A DNA stretch of 64,000 bases from an uncultured Actinomycetota bacterium. GTDB lineage: Bacteria; Actinomycetota; Actinomycetes; JACCUZ01. The stretch is from the NCBI GenBank assembly GCA_963789855.1, contig CAWBMM010000017.1:111910-175909 (forward strand), written 5' to 3'. This document shows positions 3,801-64,000 of this stretch, in pieces (position 1 is the first letter of the stretch; each line of letters opens with the position of its first letter). The position numbers were made by a program, and so were the translations under genes. Under the pieces are notes generated by a model. The model had not been told where the DNA came from. It saw only the letters and a list, made by a program, of their open reading frames with translations, and searched no databases.

Positions 3801-3860
3801 GATTCCCGCCGGACGTGCGCGGGCCGCTGCAGACCGTGATGTCCGAGGCGGACGACGGGC

Positions 3861-9599
<5,739 letters not shown>

Positions 9600-15311: not shown

Positions 15312-17084
15312 TCAGGACGGCGGGGCGTGCTCCTGCCAGCGGTTCGTGATCGGCAGCCGGCGATCCCTGCCGAAGGCCTTGAACGAGATCTTCGGTCCCG
15401 GCGGGTACTGCCGACGCTTGTACTCGGCGTGGTCGACGAGCCGCAGCACCTTCTCGACGAGCTCCTGGTCGAAGCCGGCGGCCAGCAGCTCGCCGGAGCC
15501 GCGGTCCTGCTCGACGTAGTCGTCGAGGATGTCGTCGAGCACCTCGTAGGCCGGCAGCGAGTCGGTGTCGAGCTGCCCTGGCCGCAGCTCGGCCGAGGGT
15601 TCCTTGCTGATCGACGCCTCGGGGATCGGGGGAGTCCCGCCGCACTCCTCGGCGTGCGCGTTGCGCCAGCGGGCGAGCCGCCACACCCACGTCTTCGGCA
15701 GGTCCTTGATCGGGGCGAAGCCGCCCACCGCGTCGCCGTAGATCGTGGAGTAGCCCACGGCCAGCTCGCTCTTGTTGCCCGGAGCGAGCACGAGGTGGCC
15801 GTGCTGGTTGGACAGCCCCATCAGGACCACTCCGCGCGCCCGGGCCTGCAGGTTCTCCTCGGCGAGCCCGGTCAGTGCGAGGGCACCGAGGAAGCTCTTC
15901 ACCATCGGGGCGATGGACACCGTCTGGAAGACGAGCCCGGTGCGCTCGGCCAGGTCGGCTGCGTCGGACCGCGAGTGCTCGGAGGAGTAGCTGCTGGGCA
16001 TCGACACGCCGTGCACGTTGGCGGCACCGATCGCGTCGCAGGCGATGGCTGCGGTGAGTGCCGAGTCGATGCCGCCCGAGAGTCCGATGACGACGCTGGA
16101 GAAGGCGTTCTTGCGCACGTAGTCGCGCACGCCGAGCACGAGTGCGCCGTACACCTCGGCCTCGTCCCCGAGGCGCTGCGCCACCGTGCCGGCGACGGGC
16201 TCCCAGCCAGGCAGCACGTCGGACGAGAGCACCACCCGCTCGATCGTGGTGGTCGAGCCGTCCGGCGCCTCAACGTGGCCTTCTGCCCCGACCGCTGAGG
16301 CTGCCGGCAGGTCGAGATCGACCACCAGCAGCTCGGTCTCGAACTGACCGGCGCGGGCCAGCAGGGCGCCGTCAGCAGCCACGACGAGGGAGTCGCCGTC
16401 GAAGACCAGCTCGTCCTGACCGCCGACCATGTTCACGTAGCCGAGCGTGCAGCCGGCGTCCGCGGCGCGCCGCTGCGCGAGGTCGAGCCGGACGTCGTCC
16501 TTGTTCCGCTCGTACGGCGAGCCGTTGATGACCAGCAGCAGCCCCGCTCCCGCCTCCCGGGTGACGGCGACCGGCCCGCCCTCCTGCCAGATGTCCTCGC
16601 AGATCGCCACCGCGACATCCACGCCGTGCACCCGCACCACGGTCGAGGAGGTGCCGGGCACGAAGTAGCGGTACTCGTCGAAGACGCCGTAGTTCGGCAG
16701 GTGGTGCTTGGCGTAACGACCGACGACCCGGCCGTGGTGCAGGATCGCGGCGGCGTTCTGCGGCGCGCCCTTCGGCGTACCGAGCACCGGAACGGCGTCC
16801 GGTGCCCCGTCGAGGAAGCCGACGACCACCAGCAGGTCGCCCAGGCCGTCGGTGGCGAGCTGCTCAGCCAGCCTGTCGACTGCCTGCCGGGACGCCTCCA
16901 CGAAAGAACGGCGCAGCGCGAGGTCCTCGACCGGGTAACCGGTCAGGGCCATCTCGGGGAACGCCACGACGTGTGCGCCGCTCTCGGCAGCCTTGCGCGA
17001 CCACTCCAGCACCTGCACCGCGTTGCCGTCGAGGTCCCCGACGACCGGGTTGAGCTGGGCTAGGGCGAGACGCAGCTGGGCCAC
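15312..17084 (-). CDS. nadE: Glutamine-dependent NAD+ synthetase (N-terminal CN-hydrolase domain plus C-terminal PP-loop synthetase)
   Basis: 590 aa. N-terminus: LALAQLNPVVGDLDGN ... VVAFPEMALTGYPVEDL (nitrilase fold). C-terminus: VVIGLSGGIDSALTAAIA (SGGxDS PP-loop). Confidence 0.9.
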   Translation of the reverse strand: MAQLRLALAQLNPVVGDLDGNAVQVLEWSRKAAESGAHVVAFPEMALTGYPVEDLALRRSFVEASRQAVDRLAEQLATDGLGDLLVVVGFLDGAPDAVPVLGTPKGAPQNAAAILHHGRVVGRYAKHHLPNYGVFDEYRYFVPGTSSTVVRVHGVDVAVAICEDIWQEGGPVAVTREAGAGLLLVINGSPYERNKDDVRLDLAQRRAADAGCTLGYVNMVGGQDELVFDGDSLVVAADGALLARAGQFETELLVVDLDLPAASAVGAEGHVEAPDGSTTTIERVVLSSDVLPGWEPVAGTVAQRLGDEAEVYGALVLGVRDYVRKNAFSSVVIGLSGGIDSALTAAIACDAIGAANVHGVSMPSSYSSEHSRSDAADLAERTGLVFQTVSIAPMVKSFLGALALTGLAEENLQARARGVVLMGLSNQHGHLVLAPGNKSELAVGYSTIYGDAVGGFAPIKDLPKTWVWRLARWRNAHAEECGGTPPIPEASISKEPSAELRPGQLDTDSLPAYEVLDDILDDYVEQDRGSGELLAAGFDQELVEKVLRLVDHAEYKRRQYPPGPKISFKAFGRDRRLPITNRWQEHAPPS

Positions 17085-17115
17085 GCCACGAGCCTAGTGC
17101 GGCATGACGAGGCGG

Positions 17116-18960
17116 TCAGACCCGCCGGATCCGGCGAACGTCCGGGTACTGCCCGCCGCCTCGGGCCGGCGCCGGCAGGGTCTCGGTCGCCTCGGCGCGC
17201 AACCGCGTCGCGTAGGACGCGAAGTGCTCGGAGAGCCACGGGGTCATCGCCTCGGCCGTCATCGGGCGGGCCAGGAAGTAGCCCTGCACGAGGTCGCAGC
17301 CGAAGGTCTGCAGCAGCCGCCAGGTGGCCTCGTCCTCGACGCCCTCGGCGACGACCCGCAGGCCCAGGTCGTGACCGAGGCCGATGACCGCCCGAACGAT
17401 GGCCTGGTCCTCCTTGCGCTCGGCCAGGTGCCGCACGAAGGAGCGGTCGACCTTGACCTCATGGACCGGCAGGCTGCGCAGCCGGGTGAGCGAGGAGTAG
17501 CCCGTGCCGAAGTCGTCGACCGAGACCAGCAGGCCCAGGTCGACGAGCCGCTCCAGTGCGCGGACCGCCCGCTCGGGGTCGGAGACGATCGCGCTCTCCG
17601 TCACCTCGAGCTTGAGCAGGGCGGCAGCGAGCCCGGCCTGCACCAGCAGTCGGGCGACGGTGTCCGCGAGCTCGGGCTCGAGCAGGTTGCGCATCGAGAC
17701 GTTCACGGCCATGAGGACCGGGGTGCCGGCGTCGCGCCAGCTGACGCACTGCCGGATGGCGGTCTCGACGACGAAGTTGGTCAACGGCTTGATGAGGCCG
17801 GTGTGCTCCGCCAGCGGGATGAACTCGTCCGGCGGGACGTTGCCCCACAGCGGGTGGTTCCAGCGCAGCAGCGCCTCGACCCCGGTCACCTGGCCGCTCT
17901 CCGGGTCTGCCTGCGGCTGGTAGTACAGCTCGAGGGTGCGCTCCTCGACGGCGCGGGCCAGGTCGCCGATCAGCGACAGCCGCCGCGAGCTGTACGGGTC
18001 ACGGTCGGGCGAGTAGCGCGCGACACCGGTGAGGCCGTGCTTGGCGTCGTACATCGCCACCTCGGCCCGCCGGAGCAGCAACGCCGCCGACGAGCCGTCG
18101 CGTGGCGTCGCGGCGATGCCGATGGACGCCCGCACGTCGAGGGTGACCTCGCCGAGGTCGAACGGCCGCGCGATGTCGCGGGTGATGCGCGAGACCATGC
18201 CTTCGATGTGCACGTCGTCGCCGCCGAGCAGGACGGCGAACTCGTCGCCACCGAGCCGGGCCACGACGGTCTCACCGCGCTCGACCTGGCGGAGCCGGCG
18301 GCCGACCTCGCGGAGCAGCCGGTCACCGACGTCGTGCCCGAGGGTGTCGTTGACCTCCTTGAAGCGGTCGACGTCCATCAGGAGCACGGCGGCCGAACCG
18401 TCGGACAGCAACCGGCGCTCGAGCCGCTGCTGGAAGTGCAGCCGGTTGGGCAGCCCCGTCAGCGGGTCGTGCAGTGACAGGTGCTCGGTCTCCTGGGCGG
18501 CTGCCCGGACGCGGGCCACCAGGCCGGAGTTCGTCAGCGCCACGCTGGCGTGACCGGCCAGCGCCTCGAACAGCTTGAGGTCCTCGCGGTCGAAGGTGCT
18601 CAGGTCGTCGAGCCGGTCGGTCACCAGGAACACGCCGGTGATCTCGCCGCCGTCGCGCAGCGGCGCCGCCATCGCGTCGACGTGGCCCTCGGCCTTGAGC
18701 AGCTCGTGGCTGGTGCTCTCACCACCGCGGGCCAGCAGGACCGGCGTGCCGTTGCAGGCCGGCGCCCACCAGTCGCTGGAGTTGGGCTGGCAGAGCACGA
18801 CCGAGGCGTTGCGGGCCCGCAGCAGCTCGCAGGCTTCCGCGCGGACGGTCTCCATCACCGACTCGTCCTGCAGCGCGCGGTCGACCGAGCCGGTGAACCG
18901 GTAGAGCAGCTCCAACCGGCTGTAGCGCAGCCGCTGCACGTGGAATCCGCGGTACAGCAC
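17116..18960 (-). CDS. GAF–GGDEF–EAL c-di-GMP turnover protein. An N-terminal multi-TM sensor region continues upstream to about 19657 in shifted frames.
   Basis: GGDEF: HDPLTGLPNRLHF and RLGGDEFAVLL. EAL: YQPQADPESGQVTGVEALLRWNHP, DDFGTGYSSL and EVKVDRSFV. Hydrophobic TM-like segments (LIWLVTGLLAAAGATLW, VVALLFALTAAFVV, LVLGLFFLTTNGLMAAALL) lie in ORFs 19208..19657 and 18966..19643 in different frames. Confidence 0.85.
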   Translation of the reverse strand: MLYRGFHVQRLRYSRLELLYRFTGSVDRALQDESVMETVRAEACELLRARNASVVLCQPNSSDWWAPACNGTPVLLARGGESTSHELLKAEGHVDAMAAPLRDGGEITGVFLVTDRLDDLSTFDREDLKLFEALAGHASVALTNSGLVARVRAAAQETEHLSLHDPLTGLPNRLHFQQRLERRLLSDGSAAVLLMDVDRFKEVNDTLGHDVGDRLLREVGRRLRQVERGETVVARLGGDEFAVLLGGDDVHIEGMVSRITRDIARPFDLGEVTLDVRASIGIAATPRDGSSAALLLRRAEVAMYDAKHGLTGVARYSPDRDPYSSRRLSLIGDLARAVEERTLELYYQPQADPESGQVTGVEALLRWNHPLWGNVPPDEFIPLAEHTGLIKPLTNFVVETAIRQCVSWRDAGTPVLMAVNVSMRNLLEPELADTVARLLVQAGLAAALLKLEVTESAIVSDPERAVRALERLVDLGLLVSVDDFGTGYSSLTRLRSLPVHEVKVDRSFVRHLAERKEDQAIVRAVIGLGHDLGLRVVAEGVEDEATWRLLQTFGCDLVQGYFLARPMTAEAMTPWLSEHFASYATRLRAEATETLPAPARGGGQYPDVRRIRRV

Positions 18961-19721
18961 ATAGCTCAGGACTCGCGAGGATCGCCAGCAGCGCCAGCGC
19001 AGCCGGCGAGTCGCGCAGGATCAGCGACCGTGATGAGCGCGAGATCCGTGACCACGAAGTGCCGATCGCGGCGGCACCCAAGGTGCGGGCGAGGCCGCGG
19101 AGGTCCCAGGAACTGAGCCGCAGGCTGATGATGACGAAGACTGCGACGTTGGCGAGCGACGTCGGCTATCAATGTCGCGGCGAGTGCTGACAGCCAGACG
19201 AGCGGCGTCAGGTCGCTCGGCGGAGCACGTCGAACAAGGCGAGGCGTGCCGGAGAAGACGAGGCACGCGACGGGAACCTGGGTGAACGACGGAGGCCATG
19301 TTGAAGGCCAGCTTGATCGCCGGATTGCGGCGTACGACGAGCTGGACGAAGCCGCAGCCCGAGCAAGGCCGCGGCCATCAGACCGTTCGTCGTCAGGAAG
19401 AACAGGCCGAGCACCAACGGTGCCTGATTCAGGGCCAGGCTGTGGTTGTCGCGCCCGAACGGAAGGTGGACGACGAAGGCCGCAGTCAGGGCGAACAGGA
19501 GCGCGACGACCGGCCACCACTGGGGCGACAGTGCCGGCAGCTGCGGAGTGACCGACCACAGAGTCGCCCCCGCCGCAGCCAGCAGCCCCGTCACCAGCCA
19601 GATCAGCTGGTCCGGGGTTGCTCTCCGGACGGTCGCCACACACTGATTGTGGGGCATACAGCAGCGCTGCGTGACCGAACCGACTCAGTCCTGGCCTCGG
19701 GATAGCCCGATTGGCCCAGTA

Positions 19722-19964
19722 TCAGTTCCAGATGGCGCCGCTAGGGTCCACCTTCTTGTTCCAGATGACGCCGGCCAGCTCGACAGGCTTCTTGTTCCAG
19801 ATCGCGCCGGCCTGGTGGGCCGACTTCTTGTTCCAGATGGCGCCGGCCTGGTCGTGGGCGGCGGAGGAGAAGGCTCCGACGAGCAGGGCGGCCGCGACGA
19901 GTGCCAGTGCGGCCAGGAGGCCGATGACGGGGGAGAGGGAGCGGGCGGCGAATGCGCGTGTCAT
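19722..19964 (-). CDS. Small secreted repeat peptide: signal peptide followed by 4 tandem 12-aa repeats with core AG(A/V)IWNKK
   Basis: ORF 19722..19976. ATG at 19964 has a GGAG 7 nt upstream. MTRAFAARSLSPVIGLLAALALVAAALLVGAFSSAA|HDQAGAIWNKKSAHQAGAIWNKKPVELAGVIWNKKVDPSGAIWN. The DNA repeat period is 36 nt. Lys uses aag and codon bias is GC3, which favours this strand over the mirror + ORF (that one uses rare ttg Leu). Confidence 0.4.
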   Translation of the reverse strand: MTRAFAARSLSPVIGLLAALALVAAALLVGAFSSAAHDQAGAIWNKKSAHQAGAIWNKKPVELAGVIWNKKVDPSGAIWN

Positions 19965-20145
19965 GGGGAACTCCAATGTTGGCCCGGGGGTGGGGCGCTG
20001 TTTGTCAGTGGAAATGATCGACGTTGCTCATTCATGGATGAATCATGAGACTCCGTTGACTTGGCAAAGGATGGTCTCGCGTGGCATACGCGGGGACCAC
20101 AGCGACGTAACACGGCGGTAACACCGGCCCGGCACGATCGCGGGC

Positions 20146-21483
20146 ATGGACAAGCAGCAGGAGTTCGTCCTTCGTACGCTCGAGGAGCGGGACATCCGAT
20201 TCGTCCGCCTCTGGTTCACCGACGTGCTGGGCTTCCTGAAGTCGGTGGCCGTGGCGCCGGCCGAGCTGGAGGGCGCCTTCGACGAGGGTATCGGGTTCGA
20301 CGGCTCGGCCATCGAGGGCTTCGCCCGGGTCGCCGAGTCCGACATGCTGGCCAAACCGGACCCGGGGACCTTCCAGATCCTCCCGTGGCGCTCCGAGTCG
20401 CCCGGGACCGCGCGGATGTTCTGCGACATCGTGCTGCCGGACGGCACGCCGGCGTACGCCGACCCGCGACAGGTGCTCAAGCGGACGCTCGCGAAGGCGG
20501 CCGACCTGGGTTTCGCCTTCTACACCCACCCCGAGATCGAGTTCTTCCTGTTCCGGGACCAGCCCGAGGGTGGGCTGCCCCCGGCCCCGGTCGACCAGGG
20601 CGGCTACTTCGACCACATCGCGCACGGCATCGGGCACGACTTCCGCCGCGACGCGATCACCATGCTCGAGTCGATGGGGATCTCGGTGGAGTTCAGCCAC
20701 CACGAGGGCGCCCCCGGCCAGCAGGAGATCGACCTGCGCTACGCCGACGCGCTGTCCACTGCGGACAACATCATGACCTTCCGGCACGTGATGAAGCAGG
20801 TGGCGCTCAGCCAGGGCGTGTTCGCGTCGTTCATGCCCAAGCCGCTGACCGACCACCCCGGGTCGGGCATGCACACCCACCTCTCGCTGTTCGAGGGCGA
20901 GCGCAACGCGTTCTTCGAGGCCGGTGCGCCCTACCAGCTGTCGAAGGTGGCCCGCTCGTTCATCGCCGGCCTCCTGGTGCACGCCGGTGAGATCGCGGCG
21001 GTCACGAACCAGTGGGTCAACTCCTACAAGCGGCTGCTCGGCGGCGGCGAGGCACCGGCGTACGTCTGCTGGGGTCACAACAACCGCTCCGCCATGGTGC
21101 GGGTGCCGATGTACAAGCCGGCCAAGGGCCAGTCGACGCGGGTCGAGCTGCGCACCCCGGACTCGGCGTGCAACCCCTACCTCGCGTACGCCGTCATCCT
21201 CGGCGCCGGCCTCAAGGGCATCCAGGAGGGCTACGACCTGCCGGAGGGCGCCGAGGACGACGTCTGGGCGCTCACCGACGCCGAGCGTCGGGCGCTCGGC
21301 ATCGAGCCGCTGCCGACCAACCTCTCCGAGGCGATCCGGCGGATGGAGGGCAGCGAGCTGGTCGCCGAGGTCCTGGGCGAGCACGTCTTCGACTTCTTCC
21401 TGCGCAACAAGCGGGCCGAGTGGGTGGACTACCGGCGTGAGGTGACGCCGTTCGAGCTGGACCGCTACCTCTCGGTGCTGTGA
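20146..21483 (+). CDS. glnA2: Glutamine synthetase family protein (GlnA2-type, 445 aa)
   Basis: MDKQQEFVLRTLEERDIRFVRLWFTDVLGFLKSV ... FDGSAIEGF ... HHEGAPGQQEIDLRY ... NPYLAYAVILGAGL. Full-length and unframeshifted. Sits immediately upstream of glnE, as in mycobacteria. Confidence 0.85.
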   Translation: MDKQQEFVLRTLEERDIRFVRLWFTDVLGFLKSVAVAPAELEGAFDEGIGFDGSAIEGFARVAESDMLAKPDPGTFQILPWRSESPGTARMFCDIVLPDGTPAYADPRQVLKRTLAKAADLGFAFYTHPEIEFFLFRDQPEGGLPPAPVDQGGYFDHIAHGIGHDFRRDAITMLESMGISVEFSHHEGAPGQQEIDLRYADALSTADNIMTFRHVMKQVALSQGVFASFMPKPLTDHPGSGMHTHLSLFEGERNAFFEAGAPYQLSKVARSFIAGLLVHAGEIAAVTNQWVNSYKRLLGGGEAPAYVCWGHNNRSAMVRVPMYKPAKGQSTRVELRTPDSACNPYLAYAVILGAGLKGIQEGYDLPEGAEDDVWALTDAERRALGIEPLPTNLSEAIRRMEGSELVAEVLGEHVFDFFLRNKRAEWVDYRREVTPFELDRYLSVL

Positions 21484-53884: not shown

Positions 53885-55427
53885 TCACCCGATCAGCCCT
53901 TCGCGAGCGCACCGTCCGCGAGCTGCTCGGCCAGCCGCACCAGGGTGCGCACCGGGTGCCCGGTGCCGCCCTTCGGGGTGTACCCGTGCGGTGCCGCGTC
54001 GTTGTAGGACGGCCCGGCGATGTCCAGGTGCGCCCAGCGGATGCCGGGGCCGACGAACTCCTTGAGGAAGAGCCCAGCGGTCAGCATGCCGCCGTACTTG
54101 TCGCCCATGTTGGCGATGTCGGCGACCGGTCGATCCATCGCCGGTGCGCAGCTCGGCGGGCAGCGGCATCGGCCACATCTGCTCGCCGGCCTCACCTGCT
54201 GCGGCGACGATCGCCTGCTGCAGTTCGTCGTCGTTGGCCATGACGCCCGACGGTGCGGGCGCCCAGCGCGACCAGCTGGGCGCCGGTGAGCGTCGCCACG
54301 TCGATGATGATGTCCGGCTCGTCCTCGCTGGCGCGCGCGATGCGCGTCGGCGAGCACCAGGCGGCCCTCGGCGTCGGTGTTGAGCACCTCGACCGTGGTG
54401 CCGCCGTAGATGCGTGAGGACGTCGGACGGCCGCTGGGCCGAGCCCGACGGCATGTTCTCGGCCATCGGCGCCCAAGCCGTGACGTTGACCTGAGGCCGA
54501 GCCGGGCGATGGCGGTGATCGCGGCGATGACGGCGGCCGCGCCACCCATGTCGCACTTCATCGCACTCCATCGCGGTCGACGGCTTGAGCGACAGGCCGC
54601 CGGAGTCGAAGGTGATGCCCTTGCCGACCAGCGCCAGGTTCGTCTTGCCCCGGCGCCCCGGTAGCTGAGCCTCACCAGCCGCGGCGGGCGTGACGAGCCC
54701 TGCCGACGCCGAGGATCCCGCCGTACCCGGCCTTCTTCAGGGCCTTCTCGTCGAGCACCTCGACGGTGACGCCGGCGGCCTTGGCGGCCGTGACGGCCCG
54801 CGCGGCGAGCTCGGCCGGCGGCAGGTCGCCGGGCGGCATGTTCACCCAGTCGCGCGCCAGGTGCACGGCCTCGACGACGGTGCCCGCCCGGGCGGCAGCC
54901 GCCTTGACGGCCCGGTCCCGGGCGGCGCCGGAGATCAGGGTGAACGACTCGACCGGGGGCCGGTTCCGGTCCAGGCTCGTCACCCGGAAGCTGCGGAACG
55001 CGTAGGCACCGAGCAGCGCGCCCTCGGCGACCCCGGCCGCATCCTCAGGGGTCTCCGCGGGGAGCGCGAGACCCACCTTCGCCGTGCCGGCCAGGGCGCG
55101 CGCCGCCGCGCCGGCAGCCCGGCGGAGCGACTCGTGGTCGTACGTCGGTGCGCTGCCGTTCTTGGCGCCGGCGGCCTTGCCGACGCAGACCGCGACCACG
55201 ATGGGTGCGGTCGTGGCACCCAGCGAGGACAGCTTGGAGACCTCGTTCGGGTTGCCCAGGTTGCCCATCGCCGCGACCGTCTCGGCGATCTTGCCCTTGA
55301 AGGCCTTGTCGACCTCCTCCGCCCCCGGCAGCAGGACGAAACCGTCCGGTGTCTTCGCGAAGCCGACGACGAGGGCGTCGACCTTCAGCGTCGTGGGCTT
55401 GCTGGTGCTGAGCGTGAGCGTTGCCAA
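53885..55427 (-). CDS. pepA: Leucyl aminopeptidase (M17), heavily frameshifted (4 or more shifts)
   Basis: N-terminal domain in ORF 54672..55943 ([16 protein letters not shown] ... [31 protein letters not shown]). Catalytic-domain fragments in ORFs 53893..54675, 54192..54545 and 53885..54571 ([62 protein letters not shown]). Start at TTG 55427 is tentative. Confidence 0.8.
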
Positions 55428-55505
55428 GGCGCTGCCGTCCTGTTCGCGGTTGGTCGGACTCGTGGGGGTCTGAGCAGGTCCGCTGGCGATGCTAGCGTCC
55501 GGCCG

Positions 55506-56623
55506 ATGAGCGAGCAGACCGGCCTCCGACGTTCCCCGCTGCACGACCGGCACACGGCGCTCGGCGCCAAGATGGCCGACTTCGGTGGCTGGGAGATGCC
55601 GATCGAGTACCCCGGCGGCGGGGTGGTGAAGGAGCACACCGCGGTGCGGGAGGCGGTCGGCGTGTTCGACGTGAGCCACCTCGGCAAGGCCGTCGTGCGC
55701 GGGCCGGGCGCCGCGGCGTTCGTCAACGGCACGCTCACCAACGACCTCGACCGGATCGGCCCGGGCAAGGCGCAGTACACGCTGTGCTGCGACGACGCGA
55801 CCGGCGGCGTGGTCGACGACCTCATCGCCTACTACCGCAGCGACGACGAGGTCTTCCTGATCCCCAACGCCGCGAACACCGCCGAGGTCGTCCGCCGGCT
55901 GTCGGCCGGCGCACCGGACGGCGTCGAGGTGCTCGACCAGCACGAGGCGTACGGCGTGCGTCGCGGTGCAGGGCCCGACGAGCGACGAGACCCTCGAGGC
56001 GCTCGGGCTGCCGACCGGTCACGACTACATGTCCTTCGTGGCCCTCGACTGGCGCGGCAGCGAGCTCGTGGTCTGCCGCACCGGCTACACCGGCGAGCAC
56101 GGCTACGAGCTGGTGCCCCGCTGGGACGACACGCCGGCGCTGTGGGACGCCGTGCTCGAGGCGGGCGCGCCGTTCGGCATCCGGCCGGCCGGCCTGGGCG
56201 CTCGCGACACGCTGCGCACCGAGATGGGCTACCCGCTGCACGGCCAGGACCTGTCCCTCGACATCACGCCCGGTGCAGGCGCGCTGCGGGTGGGCCGTCG
56301 GCTGGGAGAAGCCGCAGTTCTGGGGCCGCGACGTGCTGCTGGCCGAGAAGGAGGCCGGCGCCGCGCGGCTGGCCTGGGGGCTGGAGGGCCTCGAGCGGGC
56401 CATCCCGCGCGCCCACATGGCGGTGACGACGTCGGACGGTACGGCGGTCGGCGAGGTCACCAGCGGCACCTTCTCGCCGACCCGCAAGGTCGGCATCGCC
56501 CTCGCCCTGCTCGACCGCGGTGTCGCGGCGGGCGACGAGGTGCTGGTCGACGTCCGCGGCCGCCCGGCCCGGTTCCGCGTCGTCAAGCCGCCCTTCGTCA
56601 CCCCGTCGACTCGCGAGGCCTGA
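55506..56623 (+). CDS. gcvT: Glycine cleavage system aminomethyltransferase (T protein), 2 frameshifts
   Basis: [38 protein letters not shown] ... VFDVSHLGK. Then ORF 55966..57150 ([13 protein letters not shown]) and ORF 55784..56623 ([14 protein letters not shown] ... TSGTFSPT). Confidence 0.85.
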
Positions 56624-56625
56624 CG

Positions 56626-57150
56626 GTGGCCGGCGGGGTCCAGAAGGTGCTGCTGATGGGCATGATGGGGGCGGGCAAGACCTCGGTGGGCAACGCGATC
56701 AGCGCGCGCACCGGCTGGCCCTACCGCGACAACGACGAGGCCGTCGAGATGATCACCGGCCTGCCCACCCGCGAGCTGCTCGACCGGCGCGGGCCGGCCG
56801 CCCTGCGCACCGCCGAGTCGCAGGCCCTCGCCTCGGCGCTGGCGGAGGACCCGCCGCTGGTCGCCGGCGTCGCGGGCGGCGTGGTCGAGTCGGCCGCCGA
56901 CCTCGGCTCGCTGCGAGGCACCGACGCGTTGGTGGTCTACCTGCACACCCCGCTGGAGGTGCTGGTGCAGCGGGTGGGCGACGGGGCCGGCCGGCCGTGG
57001 CTGCAGCCCGACCCGGCGACCGCCCTGCGCACCCTGTTCGAGGGCCGCGAGCCGCTCTACCGGGAGGTCGCCGACCTGGTGGTCGACACCTCGACCGGCG
57101 ACGCCGAGAGCCACGCCGACCAGGTGGTGCGCGCACTGCGCGACCGCTAG
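56626..57150 (+). CDS. Shikimate-kinase-family (P-loop NMP-kinase-like) protein
   Basis: [19 protein letters not shown] ... YRDNDEAVE (Walker A plus the DxD/E of the AroK/gluconokinase family). About 175 aa. Confidence 0.6.
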
Positions 57151-57160
57151 CCGCCGACCG

Positions 57161-58045
57161 CTAACCCCCCACCGCGGCCCGGACCACCGGGACGGCGAGC
57201 AGCGCCCCCGTGCCGTCGTCGCCGCGCAGGCCGAGGTCGAGCAGCGGCTCCAGCGACAGCCGGTCGAGCGCGACCTGGTGCGCCGGGTCCGGCGACAGGT
57301 GTCCGGCGAGCCACCAGTCCGGGGCCCGGAACGACAGCCGGGCCGCGACGAGGGCGGCGGCACAGCTGACCGGTCCGTCCAGCACCACCGGCGTACGGCG
57401 GGCGGCCGCCTGCAGCAGCAGCCCGGTCGCGGCCGCGAGGTCCTCCCCGCCCACCGACGCCAGCAGGGCGACCTGGTCCGCCATCACCGGACGGCCCCGC
57501 CGCATGGCGTCCCGGGTCGCCGCACAGGCGACCATCCAGGCCGCGTCGTCCTGACCGGTCGCGGTGACCGCCGACGCGTCGGACCTCGTGAGCAGCCCGA
57601 CGAGCGTCGCCGCCGGCACGGCCAGGTCGGCGTCGGGGAGGGCGAGCACCAGCAGGTCGGCACCGGCGTCGACCTCCTCGTCGGCGAGGCTCGCACCGGC
57701 GAAGACGGCCGCCAGCGCCGCGCTCTCGTCGCAGGCGTCCGACATCTCGACCGGCCGGCCGACGGGTCCGCGCCGGCCGACGACGCGGACCTCGGCCCGG
57801 ACGTCGGCCGCGACCCGCGACGGCCCGGCGGGCAGCTCGTCGGCCAGCACGAGCAGCCGGGTCCGGGCCGGCGGCTGCGCCGGCGCCCGGCCCTGCACGC
57901 CGGCCAGCCAGACGGCCAGGTCGACCAGGCGCCCGCCGTTGCCCTGCCCGGCCAGCAGGCCGCTGGCCTCGCGCCGGGCGTCGTCGTCCGGCCGGTCCAC
58001 GGCGACGGCCAGCTCGTCGACGGTGATCTTCGGAGGGTCGGTCAC
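57161..58045 (-). CDS. CobT-family (nicotinate-nucleotide:dimethylbenzimidazole phosphoribosyltransferase-like) protein, short and motif-divergent
   Basis: Aligns to CobT blocks: GRLVDLAVWLAGVQG...RLLVLADE (cf. LGRLETLAVQLAG...VLVMCADHG); VGGEDLAAATGLLLQAAARRTPVVLDGPVSCAAALVA (cf. [37 protein letters not shown]); SLEPLLDLGLRGDDGTGALLAVPVV (cf. [25 protein letters not shown]). Lacks the GxGNTT block. GTG start overlaps the EcfS stop (GTGA). Confidence 0.6.
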   Translation of the reverse strand: MTDPPKITVDELAVAVDRPDDDARREASGLLAGQGNGGRLVDLAVWLAGVQGRAPAQPPARTRLLVLADELPAGPSRVAADVRAEVRVVGRRGPVGRPVEMSDACDESAALAAVFAGASLADEEVDAGADLLVLALPDADLAVPAATLVGLLTRSDASAVTATGQDDAAWMVACAATRDAMRRGRPVMADQVALLASVGGEDLAAATGLLLQAAARRTPVVLDGPVSCAAALVAARLSFRAPDWWLAGHLSPDPAHQVALDRLSLEPLLDLGLRGDDGTGALLAVPVVRAAVGG

Positions 58046-58886
58046 GGGGACATCGTGCCCACCGGCGGGTCGAACGTCGCGACCGCCTCGAACTCCGCGC
58101 GTCGCGACGCCCGTCGCAGCGCGAGCAGCACCGGGCGCGCGGCCACCGCGACGAGCGCCGCGGTCAGCAGGGCGCGGGGCACGTCGAAGCCCAGCGAGGT
58201 GGCCAGGGTGAAGGCCAGGAACCGGGCCAGGTTCGCGGTGATCGGGTCGCCGGGGACGTAGGAGATGCTGCTGTCCAGCCCGAGGGTGAACGGCCAGAAC
58301 CACAGGTTCATGAGCAGGCCGTAGCCGAGCCCCGCCGCCGCGCCGTACGCCGCCAGCAGCGCCACCTCGGCCCGCCCGGTGGCCCGCGGCAGGCAGCCCG
58401 CCGAGGAAGCCGACCCAGCCGGCGGCGAGCATCTGGAACGGCAGCCACGGCCCGACGCCCGCCGGTGAGCAGGGCCGACGCGAACAGGGTGAGCGCCCCC
58501 AGCACGAAGCCCGAACCCGCGCCCGAGCACCCGCCCGGCGATGACCAGCAGGAAGAACACCGGCTCGAAGCCGGCCACGCCGCCGCCGAGCGGGCGCAGC
58601 GCCGCGCCCACCGCGGCCAGCACGCCGAGCAGCGCGACCGCCTTGGCGTCCATGCCGCCGTCGGCGATCTCGGCCAGCACGACCCCGAGCAGCAGCGGCA
58701 GCAGCAGCGACGAACAGCCACGGCGCGTCGGACCGGCCGGCCAGCGACGAGCCCGGGCTGCACGAACAGCGGCCAGCCGAAGGCGAGCAGGCCGACCGCG
58801 CTGACCACGGTCAGCGCGACGGTGGCCCGCGAGCGCAGTCGCAGCCGCCCGGGTCGCGGGGCTGCCGGTGCAGCGCGGCCGTCGTC
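58042..58886 (-). CDS. Putative ECF-transporter S (substrate-capture) component, 3 or more frameshifts
   Basis: Hydrophobic 5–6 TM protein pieced from three frames: LTVVSAVGLLAFGWPLFVQPGL; VVLAEIADGGMDAKAVALLGVLAAVGAAL; FVLGALTLFASALLTGG; MLAAGWVGFLGG; LLAAYGAAAGLGYGLLMNLWFWPFTLGLDSSISYVPGDP. The position between EcfA and cobT-like supports the assignment. An alternative CobS call was considered (see rejected list). Confidence 0.4.
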
Positions 58887-58887
58887 A

Positions 58888-60506
58888 TCAGCCGGCCCGC
58901 AGCGAGGCTGCGACCTCGGCGACGGTGAGCCACGGCAGCGGTGCCAGCACCTTGGCCACCTGCGGGGCGAACACCGGGGAGGACATGACGACCTCGCGGG
59001 CCGGGCCGTCGCCGACGACCTCGCCGTCGGCGAGCACCACGATGCGGTCGGCGACGTCGGCGGCCAGCTCGACGTCGTGGGTGGCGAGGACCACCGCGTG
59101 GCCGGCCGCCGCCAGGTCGCGCAGCGCGACCACGAGCGCGCTCCTTGGCCGGGGTAGTCGAGCCCGCGGGTCGGCTCGTCGAGCAGCACCACCGGCGGTC
59201 GGCGGCCAGCACCACGGCCAGGGCCAGCGCCAGCCGCTGGCCCTCGGACAGGTCGCGCGGGTGGGTGCCCGCCGAGGCGCCGGGCGACGAGCCGGGCGAG
59301 CAGCGTCGACGCCGTGCCGGCAGGGACACCCGCGTCGTGGTCGGCGTCGGCGCACTCGGCCCCGACGGTGTCGGCGTAGAGCAGGTCGCCCGGCTCCTGG
59401 GGCACCAGGCCGACCCGGCGGACCAGGTCGCCGGGGCCAGCGTGGTGGGGTCGGCCCCGGTCACGGTGACCGACCCGGCCGTCCGGGGCGGCGCAGGCCG
59501 ACCAGGGCGCCAGCAGCGTCGACTTGCCGGCGCCGTTGCGGCCCATGAGGGCGACGACCTCGCCCGGCCCGCAGCCGCAGGTCGACGCCCGCGCAGCGCC
59601 GGCTCGCCGTCGTACCGCACGACCACGCCGCGCGCCTCGCACGACGACGTCGGCGTCGGAGACCGGCGCGACCGGCGGTGTCGGTGCCGGTCGGAGCCGG
59701 GCCGACAGGTCGCCGGCCCGACGGCGGGCGTCGCGCACCGACAGCGGCAGCGGCGACCAGCCGGCCAGCCGGCCCAGCTCGACCACCGGCGGCGCGACCG
59801 GCGCGGTGGCCAGCACCTCGGCGGGCTCGCCGACGACGACCGGCGCGGCCGGCGCCGGGCACCAGGACCACGCGGTCGGCGTACTGCACGACCCGCTCGA
59901 GCCGGTGCTCGGCCAGCAGCACGGTGATGCCGAGGTCGTGCACCAGCCGCTGCAGCGCGGCGAGCACCTCCTCGGCCGCGGCCGGGTCGAGGGCCGAGGT
60001 CGGCTCGTCGAGCACGAGCACCCGCGGGTGCGGCGGTGAGCACCGAGCCGATCGCGACCCGCTGCTGCTGCCCGCCCGAGAGCGTGCTCAGCGGACGGGA
60101 TCGCAGATCGCGCCAGGCCGAGCAGGTCGAGGGTCTCCTCGACCCGGCGGCGCATCACGTCCGGCGCCACGCCGAGGGACTCCATGCCGTAGGCGAGCTC
60201 GTCCTCGACGGTGTCGGTGACGAAGCCGGACAGCGGGTCCTGCCCGACGTACCCCGACGACGTCGGCGAGGTCGCGCGGCCGGTGCTCGCGGGTGTCCCG
60301 TCCGGCGACGGTCACCCGGCCGGTGAGCAGCCCGCCGGTGAAGTGCGGCACCAGGCCGTTGACGGCGCGCAGCAGCGTCGACTTGCCCGACCCGGTGCGG
60401 CCGACGACCAGGCCAGCTCGCCCTCGGGCACGTGCAGGTCGACCCCGGACAGCACCGCGGCGCTGCGGCCCGGGTAGCGCACGCCGACCTGCTCGAACCG
60501 GATCAT
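58888..60506 (-). CDS. Fused tandem ECF-transporter ATPase (EcfA1-EcfA2-like, two ABC nucleotide-binding domains), frameshifted
   Basis: NBD1: MIRFEQVGVRYPG ... GRTGSGKSTLLRAVNGLV (ORF 60088..61062) and LVLDEPTSALDPAAAEEV (ORF 59461..60021). NBD2: MGRNGAGKSTLLA (ORF 58308..60185), VVLLDEPTRGLDY and VLATHDVELAADVADRIVVLADGEVV (ORF 58888..59355). ATG overlaps the EcfT stop (ATGA). Confidence 0.75.
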
Positions 60507-61705
60507 GACCGCCCTCCGGCGGGCGGCAGATCGTTCGCGACGTCGGCGGCAACTCGCCGCGGCGAGTTGCCGCCGAACGTCGCGAACGATCTTGTGCGTC
60601 GGCGGGCGGCGGGGCGACCCAGGCCGGCAGCAGCGCGACGAGCACCGCGAGGGCGGGGACGACGGGCAGCTCGGGAACCACCAGCGGGGACGTCGACGGA
60701 GCCAGCGCCGCCGGGTCGAGGGAGGCTGCGACGAGCACGCCTGCCGCGGCGACGACGCCGCTGGCGGAGACGACCCACTCCTGCAGGCGCCAGGGGTCCG
60801 GGCGGTAGCGGCTGCGGGTCGCCCGCCGGCCGCCGAGAGCCAGCCCGGCGGTCGCGAGCGCCGCGCCGGCGGCCAGCACGGGCAGCCCGAGCGCCGGCCG
60901 GCGACCCGGCATCCAGCAGGCCGAACAGGCCGATGCACACGCCGAGCAGGCCGGCCAGCGTGAGGGCGCCCGACCGTCGCCGACCCCGCCGGTCACCCGC
61001 GTCCCGGCCGAAGCCGCGGGCGTCCATCGCCGCCGCGAGGTCGACCGAGCGCTCCAGCGCACCCTCGAGCACCGGCATGGCCACGCCGCGCAGCCCGCGC
61101 AGGCCGGTGTGCGGCCGGCCGCGCAGCCGGCGGGCGGCCCGCACCCGGCCGACGCCCTCGATCAGCTGCGGCGCGAAGCTGAGCGCCACCACGACCGCCA
61201 CCCCGACCTCGTAGAGCGCACCGGGGACCGACTTCAGCAGCCGGCGCGGGTTGGCCAGCGCGTTCGCGGCGCCGACGCAGGCGAGCATCGTGGCCAGCTG
61301 CAGCCCGGCGTACAGCGCGCCCGCGACAGCCTCCAGGGTCACGTCACCGCCGAGCCGGACACCGGCCGCCCAGCTCGGCAGCCCGACCTCGGGCAGCTGC
61401 AGCAGCGCGTGGCCCGGCACCGGAGCGCCGAGCAGGGCCGCGAAGACGACCCGGATCGCGATGACGACCAGACCCATCTTCAGGTAGAAGCCGTAGGCCT
61501 TGGCCCACGGGGCGTGCGTCCGGCGGGCCGCGACCACGTAGCCCGCGACGGCGAGGATCAGCCCGAGCAGCAGCGGGTTGGTGGTGCGGCTGGCGGCGGT
61601 GGCCAGCCCGATCGCCCACAGCCACCAGGCGCCCGGGTGCAGCGCGCGCAGGTGCCGCAGCGAGGGCAGCGACCGGGGCACCGGCCGGGCTGCGGTGGCC
61701 GTCAC
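60503..61705 (-). CDS. ECF-transporter T component (EcfT/CbiQ family)
   Basis: 400-aa ORF. N-terminal 270 aa is a 5–6 TM CbiQ-like protein (LRHLRALHPGAWWLWAIGLATAASRTTNPLLLGLILAVAGYVVAARR ... ARRLRG ... LEGALERSVDLAAAMDARG, the conserved EcfT coupling helices with the ARG motif). The Arg/Gly-rich tail probably runs past the true start of the next gene. Confidence 0.75.
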   Translation of the reverse strand: MTATAARPVPRSLPSLRHLRALHPGAWWLWAIGLATAASRTTNPLLLGLILAVAGYVVAARRTHAPWAKAYGFYLKMGLVVIAIRVVFAALLGAPVPGHALLQLPEVGLPSWAAGVRLGGDVTLEAVAGALYAGLQLATMLACVGAANALANPRRLLKSVPGALYEVGVAVVVALSFAPQLIEGVGRVRAARRLRGRPHTGLRGLRGVAMPVLEGALERSVDLAAAMDARGFGRDAGDRRGRRRSGALTLAGLLGVCIGLFGLLDAGSPAGARAARAGRRRGARDRRAGSRRPAGDPQPLPPGPLAPAGVGRLRQRRRRRGRRARRSLPRPGGAGSVDVPAGGSRAARRPRPRGARRAAAGLGRPAARRRTRSFATFGGNSPRRVAADVANDLPPAGGRS

Positions 61706-62612
61706 GGCGACGGCCCGCTACGCCGCGAGCGAGCGAGCGCCGCGCCACCGAGCAGCGCCACCAGCAGCCCGCCGGCCGCGAGGCCGACCCACGGCGGGCC
61801 GCCGCCGCTGCTGTCCTGCGCGGCTGCCGGTGCGGCGGTGACCGGGGTGCTGCCCGGCGAGGTGACCTCGCTGGTGGTCGCTGCGCCGCTGGAGGGTGCT
61901 GCCGCGGTAGTGGTGGCTGCGCGGTGGTGGTTGCGGCGCCGCTCGAGGTCGCTGAGCGGCTCGGGGTGGCGCTCGTCGCGGGTGCAGCCGAGTCGGTCGC
62001 CGGCTTGGGATGCTTCCGGGCCCGGGACGTCGCGGACGCCGTCGGGGCGGCCCCCGTCGATGCGGACGCCCGCGTGGTCGGCGGGCTGCTGGTCGGCGTC
62101 CCGGGGCTGGTGGCCTGCGGGCAGACGGTCCGGAAGGCGATGTCCGGCGGCTCGCGGCGGCCGCCCTCCTGCCACACCCACCCCTCGGTGTCGCCGGGCT
62201 TCGGGTCATGGCTGCCGGCGCCACTGGTGGCGTAGACCCAGCGGCTGGAGCCCTTGGCGCGCCACCAGTAGGACCAGTAGGTGTCGGCGGAGTTGCGCGA
62301 GCACTCGGGCAGCCCGTCGAGCTGGCAGACCTGCCCGGGCACCCGGGGCACGAACGCATAGCTGATGCCGGCGTCGGTCAGCGCCTCGAGCCCCGAGCGG
62401 GGGTCACCGGTCGCGCAGCCGGTCTGCACCGTGCCGCCGGCCAGCCGGCCGTCGACGATGACCCCGACGCAGGGCTTGGTCGTCGCGTCGGCCCGTACGG
62501 CCGGCCCGAGCACCGTCGCGGCCAGCGCCAGCACCGACCCCGCACCCCCGAGCATGGCGGGGGCGAGCAGCGCCGCGACGAGCAACCGGGCCGACCGCAC
62601 GGGAGCATGCAC
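61702..62612 (-). CDS. Secreted, C-terminally membrane-anchored protein (possible surface cobalamin-binding accessory, DUF4430-like), frameshift near 62200
   Basis: GTG start at 62612 immediately after the upstream stop. Signal peptide VRSARLLVAALLAPAMLGGAGSVLALAATVLGPAVRA. Domain TKPCVGVIVDGRLAGGTVQTGCATGDPRSGLEALTDAGISYAFVPRVPGQVCQLDGLPE ... TYWSYWW ... GWVWQEGG. Ser/Thr/Pro/Ala linker. C-terminal TM WVGLAAGGLLVALLGGAALARSRRS (ORF 61702..62181). Confidence 0.5.
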
Positions 62613-62614
62613 CC

Positions 62615-63688
62615 CTAGCAGGCCAGCGTCGGCAGGCCCTTGGCGGAGCCGTCCGAGCTGATGTCGGCCAGGGTCGCCTGGGCCAGCGCAGGCACGGCCT
62701 GGCTGGTCGCCCGCACCGGGTCGCCGGAGCTGGCCCGGTCGTAGCGGATCTTTCCGCGCGCCGCGACCGATGCACCGCAGCGCGCCTGCAGGGTCAGCAG
62801 GAACTCCCGTGCCTTCGCCGCCGCCGTGTCGCGGCCGACCGCGGTCAGGGCCTGGGCCGCGAGCGCCGTGCTGTTGGCGTTGCGGCTCCCGTTGCCCGAG
62901 AACGAGCCGTTGGGGTGCTGGTGGCGCTTGAGCCAGCGGCCACCGGCCTCGGCGGCCGCGTCGGCCTTCGGCCCGCCGACGGTCATCAGCGCCTGCACGG
63001 CGAAACCGGTGGCGTCGACCGACGGGGTGCACGGCGTCGCACCGAAGGTCTCCGGGTAGGCGCCGCTCGCACACTGCTGGTCGACGAGGTAGGTCACCGC
63101 GGCGCGGGACGGGCCGCGCTTCGTCGTCCGCTCCAGGCCGATCAGCGCCAGCGACTGGGTGAACGGGCTGCTGAAGTCGCCGAACTGGCTGCGGTCGGAG
63201 AACCGGCCCTTGTCCGCGGCGGGGCAGTCGGTGCGCCCCCGCGTGCCGCACTCGAGGCCGGTCAAGCCGGCGACGAGGTCCTTGCGCGGCCCGGAGCCGA
63301 ACGCCGTCGGGTCGCTGCCCTGCGCTGCGGCGACCACGAGCAGCTTGCTGAACGAGCCGGCGTAGAACTCGGTGGCGACGCCGCCCCCGGTGTAGGCGAG
63401 CACGTGCGCCTTCAGGGCCCGGGTGGCGCGCTTCGCCGCGGCCCGGCCGACCTTGGTGGCGTCGAGGGCGAGGACGGTGTCGGCGGTCACGCCGTAGTCG
63501 GGGCCGAACTGGCCGACCACGACGTTGCTGTCCGGGTCGAGCTGGCGGCCGAGCCAGCCGGCGGCGGCGTCGACCCGGTCGTGGGTCGTGGCGGCCGCGG
63601 CCGAGCCGGGAGTCGACAGCGCGACGGCCGGGGCCGCCAGCAGGGCGATCGCCGCGAGCAGCGGTGTGCGCAGACGGGTGTGGAGCAC
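62615..63688 (-). CDS. Secreted prenyltransferase/squalene-oxidase-repeat (alpha/alpha-toroid) protein
   Basis: GTG start at 63688 with AAAGGA 7 nt upstream. Signal peptide LLAAIALLAAPAVALSTPGSAAAATTHD. Repeated QxxxGxF-type terpenoid-cyclase-like units (DQQCASGAYPETFG, RHQHPNGSFSGNGSRNANSTALAAQAL, GQFGPDYGVTADTVLAL). Confidence 0.6.
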   Translation of the reverse strand: MLHTRLRTPLLAAIALLAAPAVALSTPGSAAAATTHDRVDAAAGWLGRQLDPDSNVVVGQFGPDYGVTADTVLALDATKVGRAAAKRATRALKAHVLAYTGGGVATEFYAGSFSKLLVVAAAQGSDPTAFGSGPRKDLVAGLTGLECGTRGRTDCPAADKGRFSDRSQFGDFSSPFTQSLALIGLERTTKRGPSRAAVTYLVDQQCASGAYPETFGATPCTPSVDATGFAVQALMTVGGPKADAAAEAGGRWLKRHQHPNGSFSGNGSRNANSTALAAQALTAVGRDTAAAKAREFLLTLQARCGASVAARGKIRYDRASSGDPVRATSQAVPALAQATLADISSDGSAKGLPTLAC

Positions 63689-63789
63689 GGTGAGACGTCC
63701 TTTCACGGGAGCGATCCGCGACGGGTCCCTGACGTCCGACCCCGCAACGACGACGCCCCCGACGCGAACGTGTCGCGCGGGGGGCGGAA

Positions 63790-63975
63790 GGTGCGGGCGC
63801 GATGCGCCCGGGCTCCGCCCCGCATACCTCGACGGAATGAGTGGAGCCGCTCGCGCCCGCCCAGGTGCTCCGACTCGCCGCGGTGTCCGGAGGTGCTCTC
63901 CGGCTGCGGCCTACGGTTGCGGGTCAGTGCCGGATTCCGACCGGTCTTCCCCTGCGTGGGCGCGTGTTCAGTTGT
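63790..63975 (-). promoter_or_regulatory. Putative cobalamin (B12) riboswitch in the 5' leader of the prenyltransferase-like/ECF/cobT-like operon
   Basis: The minus-strand transcript reads CAGGGGAAGACCGGUCGGAAUCCGGCACUGACCCGCAACCGUAGG ... GAGUCGGAGCACCUGGGCGGG. This matches the conserved cobalamin-aptamer core (AGGGAA..CGGU...AAUCCG...C.G.CCCGC.AC.GUA) and a B12-box-like element. A GC-rich hairpin GGGCGCAUCGCGCCC and the SD AAAGGA follow. Confidence 0.55.
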
Positions 63976-64000
63976 GGCCGGCCCCACGACGTACGCCGCC

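Follow-up and report, generated by a model that had tools for sequence, protein, structure and literature searches.

What does a transporter operon of a Gram-positive bacterium import when it opens with two secreted or surface proteins behind a leader that resembles a cobalamin aptamer? This question is raised by six co-directional genes, here called g1 to g6, in an uncultured Actinomycetota bacterium (GenBank assembly GCA_963789855.1, contig CAWBMM010000017.1). The window, that is, the whole stretch of DNA that was analyzed, is 64,000 nt long, and the operon and its leader lie on the minus strand near its upper end. Three of the genes encode an energy-coupling factor (ECF) transporter. ECF transporters are textbook importers that work without soluble binding proteins, and to our knowledge the capture of corrinoids by Gram-positive bacteria, Actinomycetota in particular, is poorly understood. 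We consider it likely that the locus is a corrinoid (B12) salvage operon, repressed by B12, in which a split transcobalamin-like pair (g1 and g2) feeds a dedicated ECF importer. A preliminary description of this DNA had proposed a B12-riboswitch operon with two extracytoplasmic proteins capturing cobalamin for an ECF transporter, and every computational test that was run supported this: the riboswitches of related loci, the predicted folds of g1 and g2, their adjacency to a module of T component, fused A-A' ATPase and S component, and natural g1-g2 and g2-EcfT fusions. The features of the locus are as follows.

63965 to 64000, minus strand: 5' leader above helix P1 of the aptamer (leader alignments)
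63852 to 63964, minus strand: predicted aptamer, a divergent cobalamin riboswitch (sub-threshold RF00174 match; RNAalifold of 18 leaders)
63746 to 63830, minus strand: predicted expression platform (RNAalifold, 18 sequences)
63697 to 63729, minus strand: invariant segment GGGACCCGUCGCGGAUCGCUC and Shine-Dalgarno sequence (RNAalifold, leader alignment)
62615 to 63688, minus strand: g1, secreted alpha/alpha toroid, 357 aa (Pfam, NCBIfam, AlphaFold2, Foldseek)
61702 to 62612, minus strand: g2, tethered Trp-rich domain protein (no Pfam family; AlphaFold2, Foldseek)
60503 to 61705, minus strand: g3, EcfT/CbiQ (Pfam CbiQ, 3.6e-7)
58888 to 60506, minus strand: g4, fused EcfA-EcfA' double ATPase (models matching the L016 ortholog; tblastn pieces)
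58042 to ~58891, minus strand: g5, ECF S component, ~280 aa, start uncertain (homolog family, transmembrane segments)
57161 to 58045, minus strand: g6, truncated CobT-derived protein, 294 aa (Pfam DBI_PRT, 2e-50)

The six genes run from 63688 to 57161 behind a leader of ~280 nt, as judged from the list of open reading frames (ORFs) and from the phase of G+C content at third codon positions (GC3). Genes were assigned with Pfam and NCBIfam, both on the window and on intact syntenic orthologs in three related loci, L015 to L017. The same six genes are open in L016, where a convergent shikimate-kinase-like gene, gcvT, and then pepA follow them, and L015 and L017 carry the same set with minor variations. 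Because these relatives carry the same genes intact, the gene list and coordinates given earlier are right, and, as had been described, the six genes are co-directional and preceded by a leader that contains a cobalamin-aptamer core. The start of g1 is corrected here to the GTG at 63688; ATG occupies the same position in L019, and the corresponding database protein, P0001, has 357 aa. The start/stop overlaps that had been reported are directly visible between g2 and g3 (GTGA at 61705 to 61702) and between g5 and g6 (GTGA at 58045 to 58042) but not elsewhere; between g1 and g2 there is a gap of 2 nt.

A search of the whole window against Rfam at the gathering threshold returned no match. In E-value mode, RF00174, the cobalamin model to which the preliminary description had pointed, does match at 63951 to 63882 on the minus strand (E = 8e-4 in a 601-nt search; model positions 46 to 168), but its 23.1 bits stay below the gathering score of 31.5 bits. 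The aptamer covers model positions 45 to 169, with high posterior probability in the core, and aligns only to these positions because the P2 hairpin is absent between P1 and P3 in the fold of 18 leaders. Its span from P1 to P1' (63964 to 63852) lies entirely within the window, while the promoter and a variable 5' hairpin extend past 64000. L018 and L017, whose leaders are complete, score alike (23.1 and 23.2 bits), so the low score reflects divergence and not the window edge; these scores and the 18-leader fold rule out truncation of the aptamer. Minimum free energy folding of the leader gave a z-score of -0.63, a value that carries no information given the GC content. Other sub-threshold Rfam matches (mir-2518, HTT-AS1_3, and ncS035), two of them within the g1 coding sequence, were dismissed as chance matches in GC-rich sequence.

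The leader is nearly invariant over 22 loci of the same clade, and RNAalifold recovered P1, P3, P4, P5, and P6 from 18 clade leaders. P1 (63964 to 63958 with 63858 to 63852) carries compensatory changes (CG 9, UA 6, UG 2), and P3 pairs 63954 to 63951 with 63865 to 63862, with P4, P5, and P6 in between. P3 to P5 are invariant in the clade, and the tip of P6 is variable. The leader shares with RF00174 the core (GGGAA, the P4 hairpin, CUGxCCCGCAACxGUA, and a B12-box-like element), the P1/P3-to-P6 architecture, and a position upstream of B12-related transport genes; it differs in its score of 23 bits, in having no P2 between P1 and P3, and in its short P6 extension. The B12-box-like element is GAGUCGGAGCACCUGG at ~63876 to 63861; a B12-box pattern longer by one G had no match. 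Other relatives match the model outright: in L001, an Acidimicrobiales metagenome-assembled genome, RF00174 scores 38.2 bits directly upstream of the g1 homolog, and 23 of 40 scanned metagenomic loci carry a match above the gathering score (33.6 to 48.6 bits) just upstream of the g1 homolog on the same strand. We regard this comparative evidence as decisive for the predicted cobalamin riboswitch at this locus. Further riboswitch matches occur in some of these loci. L050 has a second RF00174 match (38 bits, 2834 to 2912) inside the cluster after the g2 homolog, followed by ~2.3 kb before the T component, and L055, L057, and L089 have divergent minus-strand riboswitches beside the g1 leader.

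Downstream of the aptamer, the leader offers a set of alternative pairings. An invariant segment, GAGGUAUGCGGGGCGGAGCCC (63830 to 63810), contains GCGGG (63823 to 63819), which is complementary to CCCGC of L5; both are invariant in the clade, so covariation cannot speak to an L5-L13 kissing loop. A small hairpin (63812 to 63794) has three pairs with compensatory changes among the 18 sequences, and a GC-rich terminator-like hairpin (63786 to 63754), with compensatory changes at four stem pairs, is followed by UCGUCGUU (63753 to 63746). An alternative pairing of 63822 to 63813 with 63790 to 63781 can also be read from the sequence. The pairing options of 63830 to 63810 suggest a choice between terminator and antiterminator that may be controlled by the kissing loop. 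The segment 63729 to 63709, invariant in the 18 leaders, is complementary to 63830 to 63810 over ~15 pairs, and RNAalifold predicts a long-range helix between the two; all of its pairs are invariant, so that covariation argues neither for nor against it. This helix would have the terminator-like hairpin inside it and stop immediately upstream of the g1 Shine-Dalgarno sequence, GAAAGGA (63703 to 63697); it may act as a third alternative structure or in translational control. On the 5' side of P1 lie an invariant ACAACUG and part of the variable hairpin (63965 to 64000). A promoter-like TTGACG...TACC and the probable transcript start, read by eye with L018 supplying the sequence past 64000, fall beyond the window end. 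Simple scans of the leader for sigma-70 promoters and for terminators found no promoter and no canonical U-tract terminator; actinobacterial signals do not fit an Escherichia coli-type consensus. Just upstream of the promoter region, all four long relatives have a conserved small ORF on the opposite strand (61 to 69 aa, no Pfam or NCBIfam match; L015 9396 to 9599, L016 9447 to 9632, L017 9416 to 9625, and L018 9386 to 9589, all minus strand), which would fall just past the window end.

The link between the two extracytoplasmic proteins and the transporter recurs in related loci. A scan of genome contigs with g1 alone returned 14 loci, mostly irrelevant planctomycete matches, with L001 the sole useful one. 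Of 53 loci, 51 have a g2 homolog no more than 1.5 kb downstream of g1. Genes for T, AA', and S come next in 14 of 15 loci; L095, the one that departs from this, also has these genes but in a permuted arrangement. L069 has the cluster in duplicate, behind two divergently transcribed cobalamin riboswitches, one leading a minus-strand operon (556 to 6509) of g1-like (491 aa, anchored by a transmembrane segment), g2-like (247 aa), T, AA', and S genes, and the other a separate plus-strand g1-g2 pair (6610 to 8442); with each set behind its own riboswitch, the capture proteins have therefore been paralogously duplicated. In an exhaustive search, a profile of the g2 domain matched 2,548 cluster representatives at E ≤ 1e-3. 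Two of them are natural fusions that join the parts. In P0386 a toroid that is g1-like (31% identity, E = 1e-15) is followed by two g2-like domains (hhalign probability 98.5%) and by three CWB2 cell-wall-binding domains, with the alpha-type part N-terminal to the beta-type part, as in transcobalamin. P0480 joins a g2-like domain to CbiQ/EcfT (probability 99.5%). Another protein, P0423, has two g2-type domains and CWB2 repeats.

What the two proteins are was addressed mainly through their predicted structures. g1 had been described as a secreted alpha/alpha toroid with prenyltransferase-type repeats, and this agrees with its Pfam match (SQHop_cyclase_C, 1.5e-7), its signal peptide, and its AlphaFold2 model (predicted local distance difference test [pLDDT] score, 91). 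It has a single N-terminal hydrophobic segment, no membrane anchor, and six invariant Cys. All 42 aligned homologs and g1 itself end in an invariant C-terminal Cys (LPxLAC before the stop; 62615 to 62640 in the window), one of these six, which may serve in a disulfide or in covalent attachment. The ortholog in L016 scores 117.1 bits against NCBIfam SCO2321_fam (cutoff, 300 bits) and is thus a relative and not a member of that family. Foldseek ranked class II terpene cyclases first for the g1 model (E = 1.5e-7), with transcobalamin and haptocorrin appearing from rank 11 on; E-values to transcobalamin are 8.8e-7 to 1.8e-5, with template modeling (TM) scores of ~0.55 (best, 0.56). A secreted terpene cyclase or prenyltransferase is ruled out by the missing DxDD motif, the signal peptide, and the transporter-operon context: the position of DVDDTA in squalene-hopene cyclase reads S-V-D-A-T in g1, and among g1 homologs D231 and T233 are invariant and S229, V230, and A232 nearly so. 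At the fold level, the g1 model matches the transcobalamin alpha domain, of which g1 would be the equivalent.

The second protein, g2, had been described as a transmembrane-anchored surface protein with a Trp-rich domain. Its signal peptide and C-terminal transmembrane anchor with an RR tail bear this out and make it a type-I tethered protein; between them lie a Cys/Trp-rich domain of ~120 aa, with a YWSYWW motif and five invariant Cys, and a Ser/Thr/Pro/Ala linker of ~100 aa. The AlphaFold2 model gives this domain a pLDDT of ~90 or above. In a Foldseek search of the Protein Data Bank (PDB), each of the best 14 matches was either a beta domain of transcobalamin or haptocorrin or else 3u7z, a DUF4430 protein (probability, 0.97 to 1.0), and the next match dropped to 0.11. 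Target-normalized TM scores against standalone beta-domain and DUF4430 entries are 0.63 to 0.71, and the matches include 5np4, the beta domain of human transcobalamin with cyanocobalamin bound. The L016 ortholog scores 22.5 bits against NCBIfam SCO2322_fam (cutoff, 85 bits), again as a relative and not a member. By its fold, though not by its sequence, the modeled g2 domain is thus of the transcobalamin beta-domain type (SLBB/DUF4430-like), and in the models g1 and g2 together reproduce both halves of the transcobalamin clamp. This link is confined to the fold level because sequence-profile searches of the PDB found no transcobalamin: the g1 profile returned terpene cyclases only and the g2 profile nothing useful. 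Structure-based sequence identity of the two models to transcobalamin-type domains is 12 to 19%.

Downstream, T component, two ATPase domains, and S component lie together in one operon, as is characteristic of dedicated ECF transporters. g3 is a CbiQ-type EcfT with a C-terminal extension. The L016 ortholog of g4 has two ABC_tran domains (9.7e-55), matches ECF_ATPase_1 and ECF_ATPase_2 at 1e-90 and 6e-88, and scores 252 bits on the cbiO model TIGR01166, above its cutoff of 211.8 bits. g5 has multiple transmembrane segments, and its homologs form a large family (PF12822) for which JGI and NCBI use the name "ECF transporter S component." Cobalt transporters are commonly under B12 riboswitches, and with T and ATPase components matching CbiQ and cbiO models the operon might be a B12-regulated importer of cobalt ions of the CbiMNQO type, serving de novo synthesis, with the surface proteins unrelated or accessory. 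We give this very little weight. Among the models of Pfam and NCBIfam, those for CbiM and CbiN included, none matches the S component, and there is no separate CbiN-like gene; the two large ligand-binding folds match B12 carriers and not metal binders; and P0480 fuses a g2-type domain to EcfT itself, which argues for a role of this domain in substrate delivery.

The frameshifts in g2 to g5 had been overlooked: none of the four genes is open in the window, and they are treated here as reconstructed genes. Searches by tblastn with the intact L016 proteins gave pieces in all three frames and at least 14 frame switches across g2 to g5, with one frameshift in g2 near 61890 to 61930, a switch in g3 near 60895 with the frame regained before the stop (86% and 77% identity to L016 g3 in the two frames), at least six switches in g4, its pieces spread over three frames, and at least four in g5. 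The GC3 phase changes repeatedly from ~61000 to 58100. It might be supposed that these frameshifts are real and that the operon is a decaying pseudogene cluster making nothing functional, given that g1 and g6 are intact and the indels patchy (almost none at 61500 to 64000 and 56500 to 58000 and 10 to 21 per 500 nt elsewhere). A near-identical strain, L018, speaks to this. Over 11.4 kb (window 64000 to 52670; L018 9689 to 21074), the two are 94.7% identical with 169 gap openings, about one per 68 nt, of which 151 are single-base and 120 are bases missing from the window relative to L018. L018 is frameshifted in the same genes at different positions, g1 and g6 are intact in both, and housekeeping genes (such as gcvT, pepA, an M48 peptidase, and an aldo-keto reductase) are broken in both assemblies. 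Since the frameshifts differ in position and strike housekeeping genes as well, those in g2 to g5 are almost certainly errors of noisy long-read assembly and not pseudogenization; record names such as "contig_14605" suggest, by their style, long-read metagenome assemblies, and the orthologs in L015 to L017 are intact. Decay of the operon is accordingly a reading to which we attach next to no credence, and gene calls in this window require frameshift-aware handling. The genes beyond g6 follow the same order as in L016, with a shikimate-kinase-like gene (~56600 to 57150, plus strand), gcvT for an aminomethyltransferase spread over three plus-strand frames (~55500 to 56620), and pepA for an M17 leucyl aminopeptidase (~54672 to 55500, minus strand).

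The last gene, g6, had been called CobT-like. Homology to CobT holds (Pfam DBI_PRT, 2e-50, over a gene intact in the window), but its degenerate state had been overlooked, as the catalytic hallmarks are lost. g6 scores 154 bits on TIGR03160 (cutoff, 319 bits) and 177 on PRK00105 (cutoff, 306), and only profile positions from ~120 to 135 onward match. Against ArsA and CobT it can be aligned from about residue 140 on, plus an N-terminal GxxGRL motif; this motif and the C-terminal domain are thus retained. The phosphate-binding loop GEMGIGNTT is replaced by LPDADLAVP, ~50 aa including the DHGV region are deleted, and the position of the catalytic Glu (GEGSG) is occupied by Asp (DDGTG). g6 probably no longer activates the lower base. 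The ortholog in L039 is near-canonical, keeping GIGNTT and the DHGV region, that in L029 is intermediate, and those in the window and L015 to L018 are shortened; because of this series, the gene in the window's clade reads, from its sequence, as a reduced derivative of a CobT that was formerly part of the operon. A CobT-like gene follows the S component in only 4 of the 12 loci with enough downstream sequence, so CobT-like genes are accessory and lie outside the conserved five-gene core. Near this gene, L015 has a 1,157-aa VWA-domain protein and a 259-aa protein inserted between the S component and the CobT-like gene (15651 to 19911), and L017 has a 1,237-aa protein without a Pfam match after the CobT-like gene (16487 to 20200).

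A CobT-family gene at the end of the operon raises the alternative that the substrate is 5,6-dimethylbenzimidazole, alpha-ribazole, or a similar lower ligand, salvaged as by CblT/CblS and processed by the CobT homolog. Lower-ligand salvage genes can be regulated by B12 riboswitches, and the near-canonical L039 copy would fit such a role. The transcobalamin beta domain, moreover, touches the nucleotide side of B12, as stated in a passage of Burroughs et al. 2007 (PMC1796856). We nonetheless judge lower-ligand import highly unlikely: CobT-like genes follow the S component in a minority of loci, g6 has lost the catalytic hallmarks of CobT, and a two-domain clamp of transcobalamin size is oversized for a benzimidazole.

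Several findings weigh against corrinoid salvage as the function of this operon. The aptamer stays below the Rfam gathering threshold throughout the window's clade, and four of the six genes are frameshifted in the window. The g1 model resembles terpene cyclases as well as transcobalamin, so that its fold alone does not discriminate, and the Foldseek E-values of g2 are modest (5e-3 to 7e-2). Neither g2 nor any of 41 homologs matches Cobalamin_bind (PF01122) or DUF4430 (PF14478), or any other Pfam family, even at E ≤ 10; the sole trace in sequence is a weak DUF4430 match (E = 0.013) in a relative, P0463, at the place of its SCO2322-like domain. With a profile built from 32 g5 homologs, no solved S component, CbrT included, is matched at E ≤ 10, and the designation of the system as "CbrT-like" in the preliminary description is not upheld. 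Finally, among systems built in this way a single one has been studied by experiment, Lsa1836-1840 of Lactobacillus sakei, and it is tied to heme and not to B12 (Verplaetse et al., bioRxiv 10.1101/864751).

The last of these points defines the alternative that the operon is a heme uptake system. Verplaetse et al. described an ECF-like cluster of five genes that include transcobalamin alpha-like and beta-like subunits; the cluster is needed for heme uptake, which its deletion impaired (bioRxiv 10.1101/864751). The two systems share separate alpha-like and beta-like extracytoplasmic subunits, ECF T component, A-A' ATPases, and S component, and the folds of g1 and g2 alone do not fix the ligand. 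The L. sakei cluster comes from a Firmicute and has no CobT-like gene, and the word "riboswitch" is absent from the paper. In the present family, a cobalamin riboswitch stands over this gene set in the window's clade and in at least 24 related loci, which is hard to reconcile with a heme-specific role, and a CobT or CobT-derived gene lies within the operon in the window's clade. Heme thus appears a very improbable substrate here, and the ligand is probably a corrinoid.

Under B12 salvage, the operon might work as follows. Cobalamin bound by the leader aptamer would repress downstream expression, likely by freeing the GC-rich terminator-like hairpin and possibly also through the long-range helix beside the ribosome-binding site. 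When B12 is scarce, the operon would be transcribed, and g1 would be secreted and g2 tethered. Like the domains of transcobalamin and intrinsic factor, the two proteins may close around one corrinoid at the cell surface, with g2 held at the membrane by its long flexible linker and C-terminal anchor. They could then hand the corrinoid to the importer made up of S component g5, EcfT g3, and fused A-A' ATPase g4, and would thereby stand in for the periplasmic binding protein that a Gram-positive cell lacks. Inside the cell, g6 may bind imported corrinoids at their nucleotide-loop end or take part in remodeling them.

The idea of capture is not new in kind. Passages of Burroughs, Balaji, Iyer, and Aravind (2007, PMC1796856), who defined the SLBB superfamily, describe bacterial domains of the transcobalamin-like type that either neighbor an alpha/alpha toroid or are fused to one, place them in CbiO/CbiQ operons where the organism has no B12 synthesis, and predict that these proteins scavenge B12 or its precursors. 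The systems described there and the present one share a secreted or anchored beta-grasp domain and a toroid beside CbiQ/CbiO-like genes, in split and fused forms, of which P0386 is an example. That study was based on computation alone and dealt mainly with low-GC Gram-positives and archaea, in contrast to the actinobacterial system here; the passages at hand argue from domain architecture and gene neighborhood, with no riboswitch evidence. The proteins analyzed here also escape the DUF4430 Pfam model and are nearer to the NCBI "SCO2321" and "SCO2322" families. Because both this prediction and the five-gene cluster of L. sakei precede it, the locus is not categorically new; it is an actinobacterial example of a predicted system, to which it adds riboswitch, fusion, and fold evidence for B12.

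Comparison with characterized B12 proteins shows where the system would differ. Animal transcobalamin, intrinsic factor, and haptocorrin likewise consist of an alpha6/alpha6 toroid and a beta-grasp domain, which there sandwich one B12, and the isolated beta domain of human transcobalamin has been crystallized with cyanocobalamin (PDB entry 5np4). The animal carriers are single soluble polypeptides recognized by receptors, whereas here two genes encode the parts, one product is tethered, and delivery to an ECF transporter is proposed. Among non-BtuFCD importers of B12, ECF-CbrT of Lactobacillus delbrueckii (Santos et al. 2018, PMC5997447) and BtuM (PMC6072759) have been characterized. Both import cobalamin without BtuB through an S-component-type membrane protein, ECF-CbrT with a T/A/A' module. 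The module here is of the dedicated type (group I), with T and fused AA' in the same operon and an S component whose sequence is unlike any solved one. We know of no extracytoplasmic binding proteins for ECF-CbrT or BtuM.

A broader reading, which we hold tentatively and would put somewhat below an even chance, is that soil Actinomycetota, and the wider set of ~2,500 g2-domain clusters, use a riboswitch-controlled split transcobalamin as the missing capture step, in which a toroid and a beta-grasp domain on a leash of ~100 residues dock the corrinoid onto a dedicated ECF transporter. This would be the first vitamin ECF system dependent on extracytoplasmic binding proteins and a prokaryotic prototype of transcobalamin and intrinsic factor, and the shortened CobT would be a noncatalytic cytoplasmic acceptor of corrinoids.

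Three independent lines (riboswitches, near-obligate adjacency, and natural fusions) tie a two-part transcobalamin-like binder to an ECF module, and the in silico prediction of 2007 thereby gains a direct regulatory link to B12. The locus also presents a P2-less variant of the cobalamin aptamer, missed at the Rfam threshold, and a degenerate CobT accessory. A full-text literature search for the function of SCO2321 to SCO2326 found nothing; the present results suggest a likely function for the SCO2321 and SCO2322 families of NCBI, which lack annotation and occur in Streptomyces. They are also relevant to the proposal that the B12 carriers of animals originated in bacteria. The intact orthologs in L015 to L017 can be used for binding and transport assays. 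Taken on its sequence and models, the operon is a strong candidate for B12 capture in these Gram-positive bacteria.

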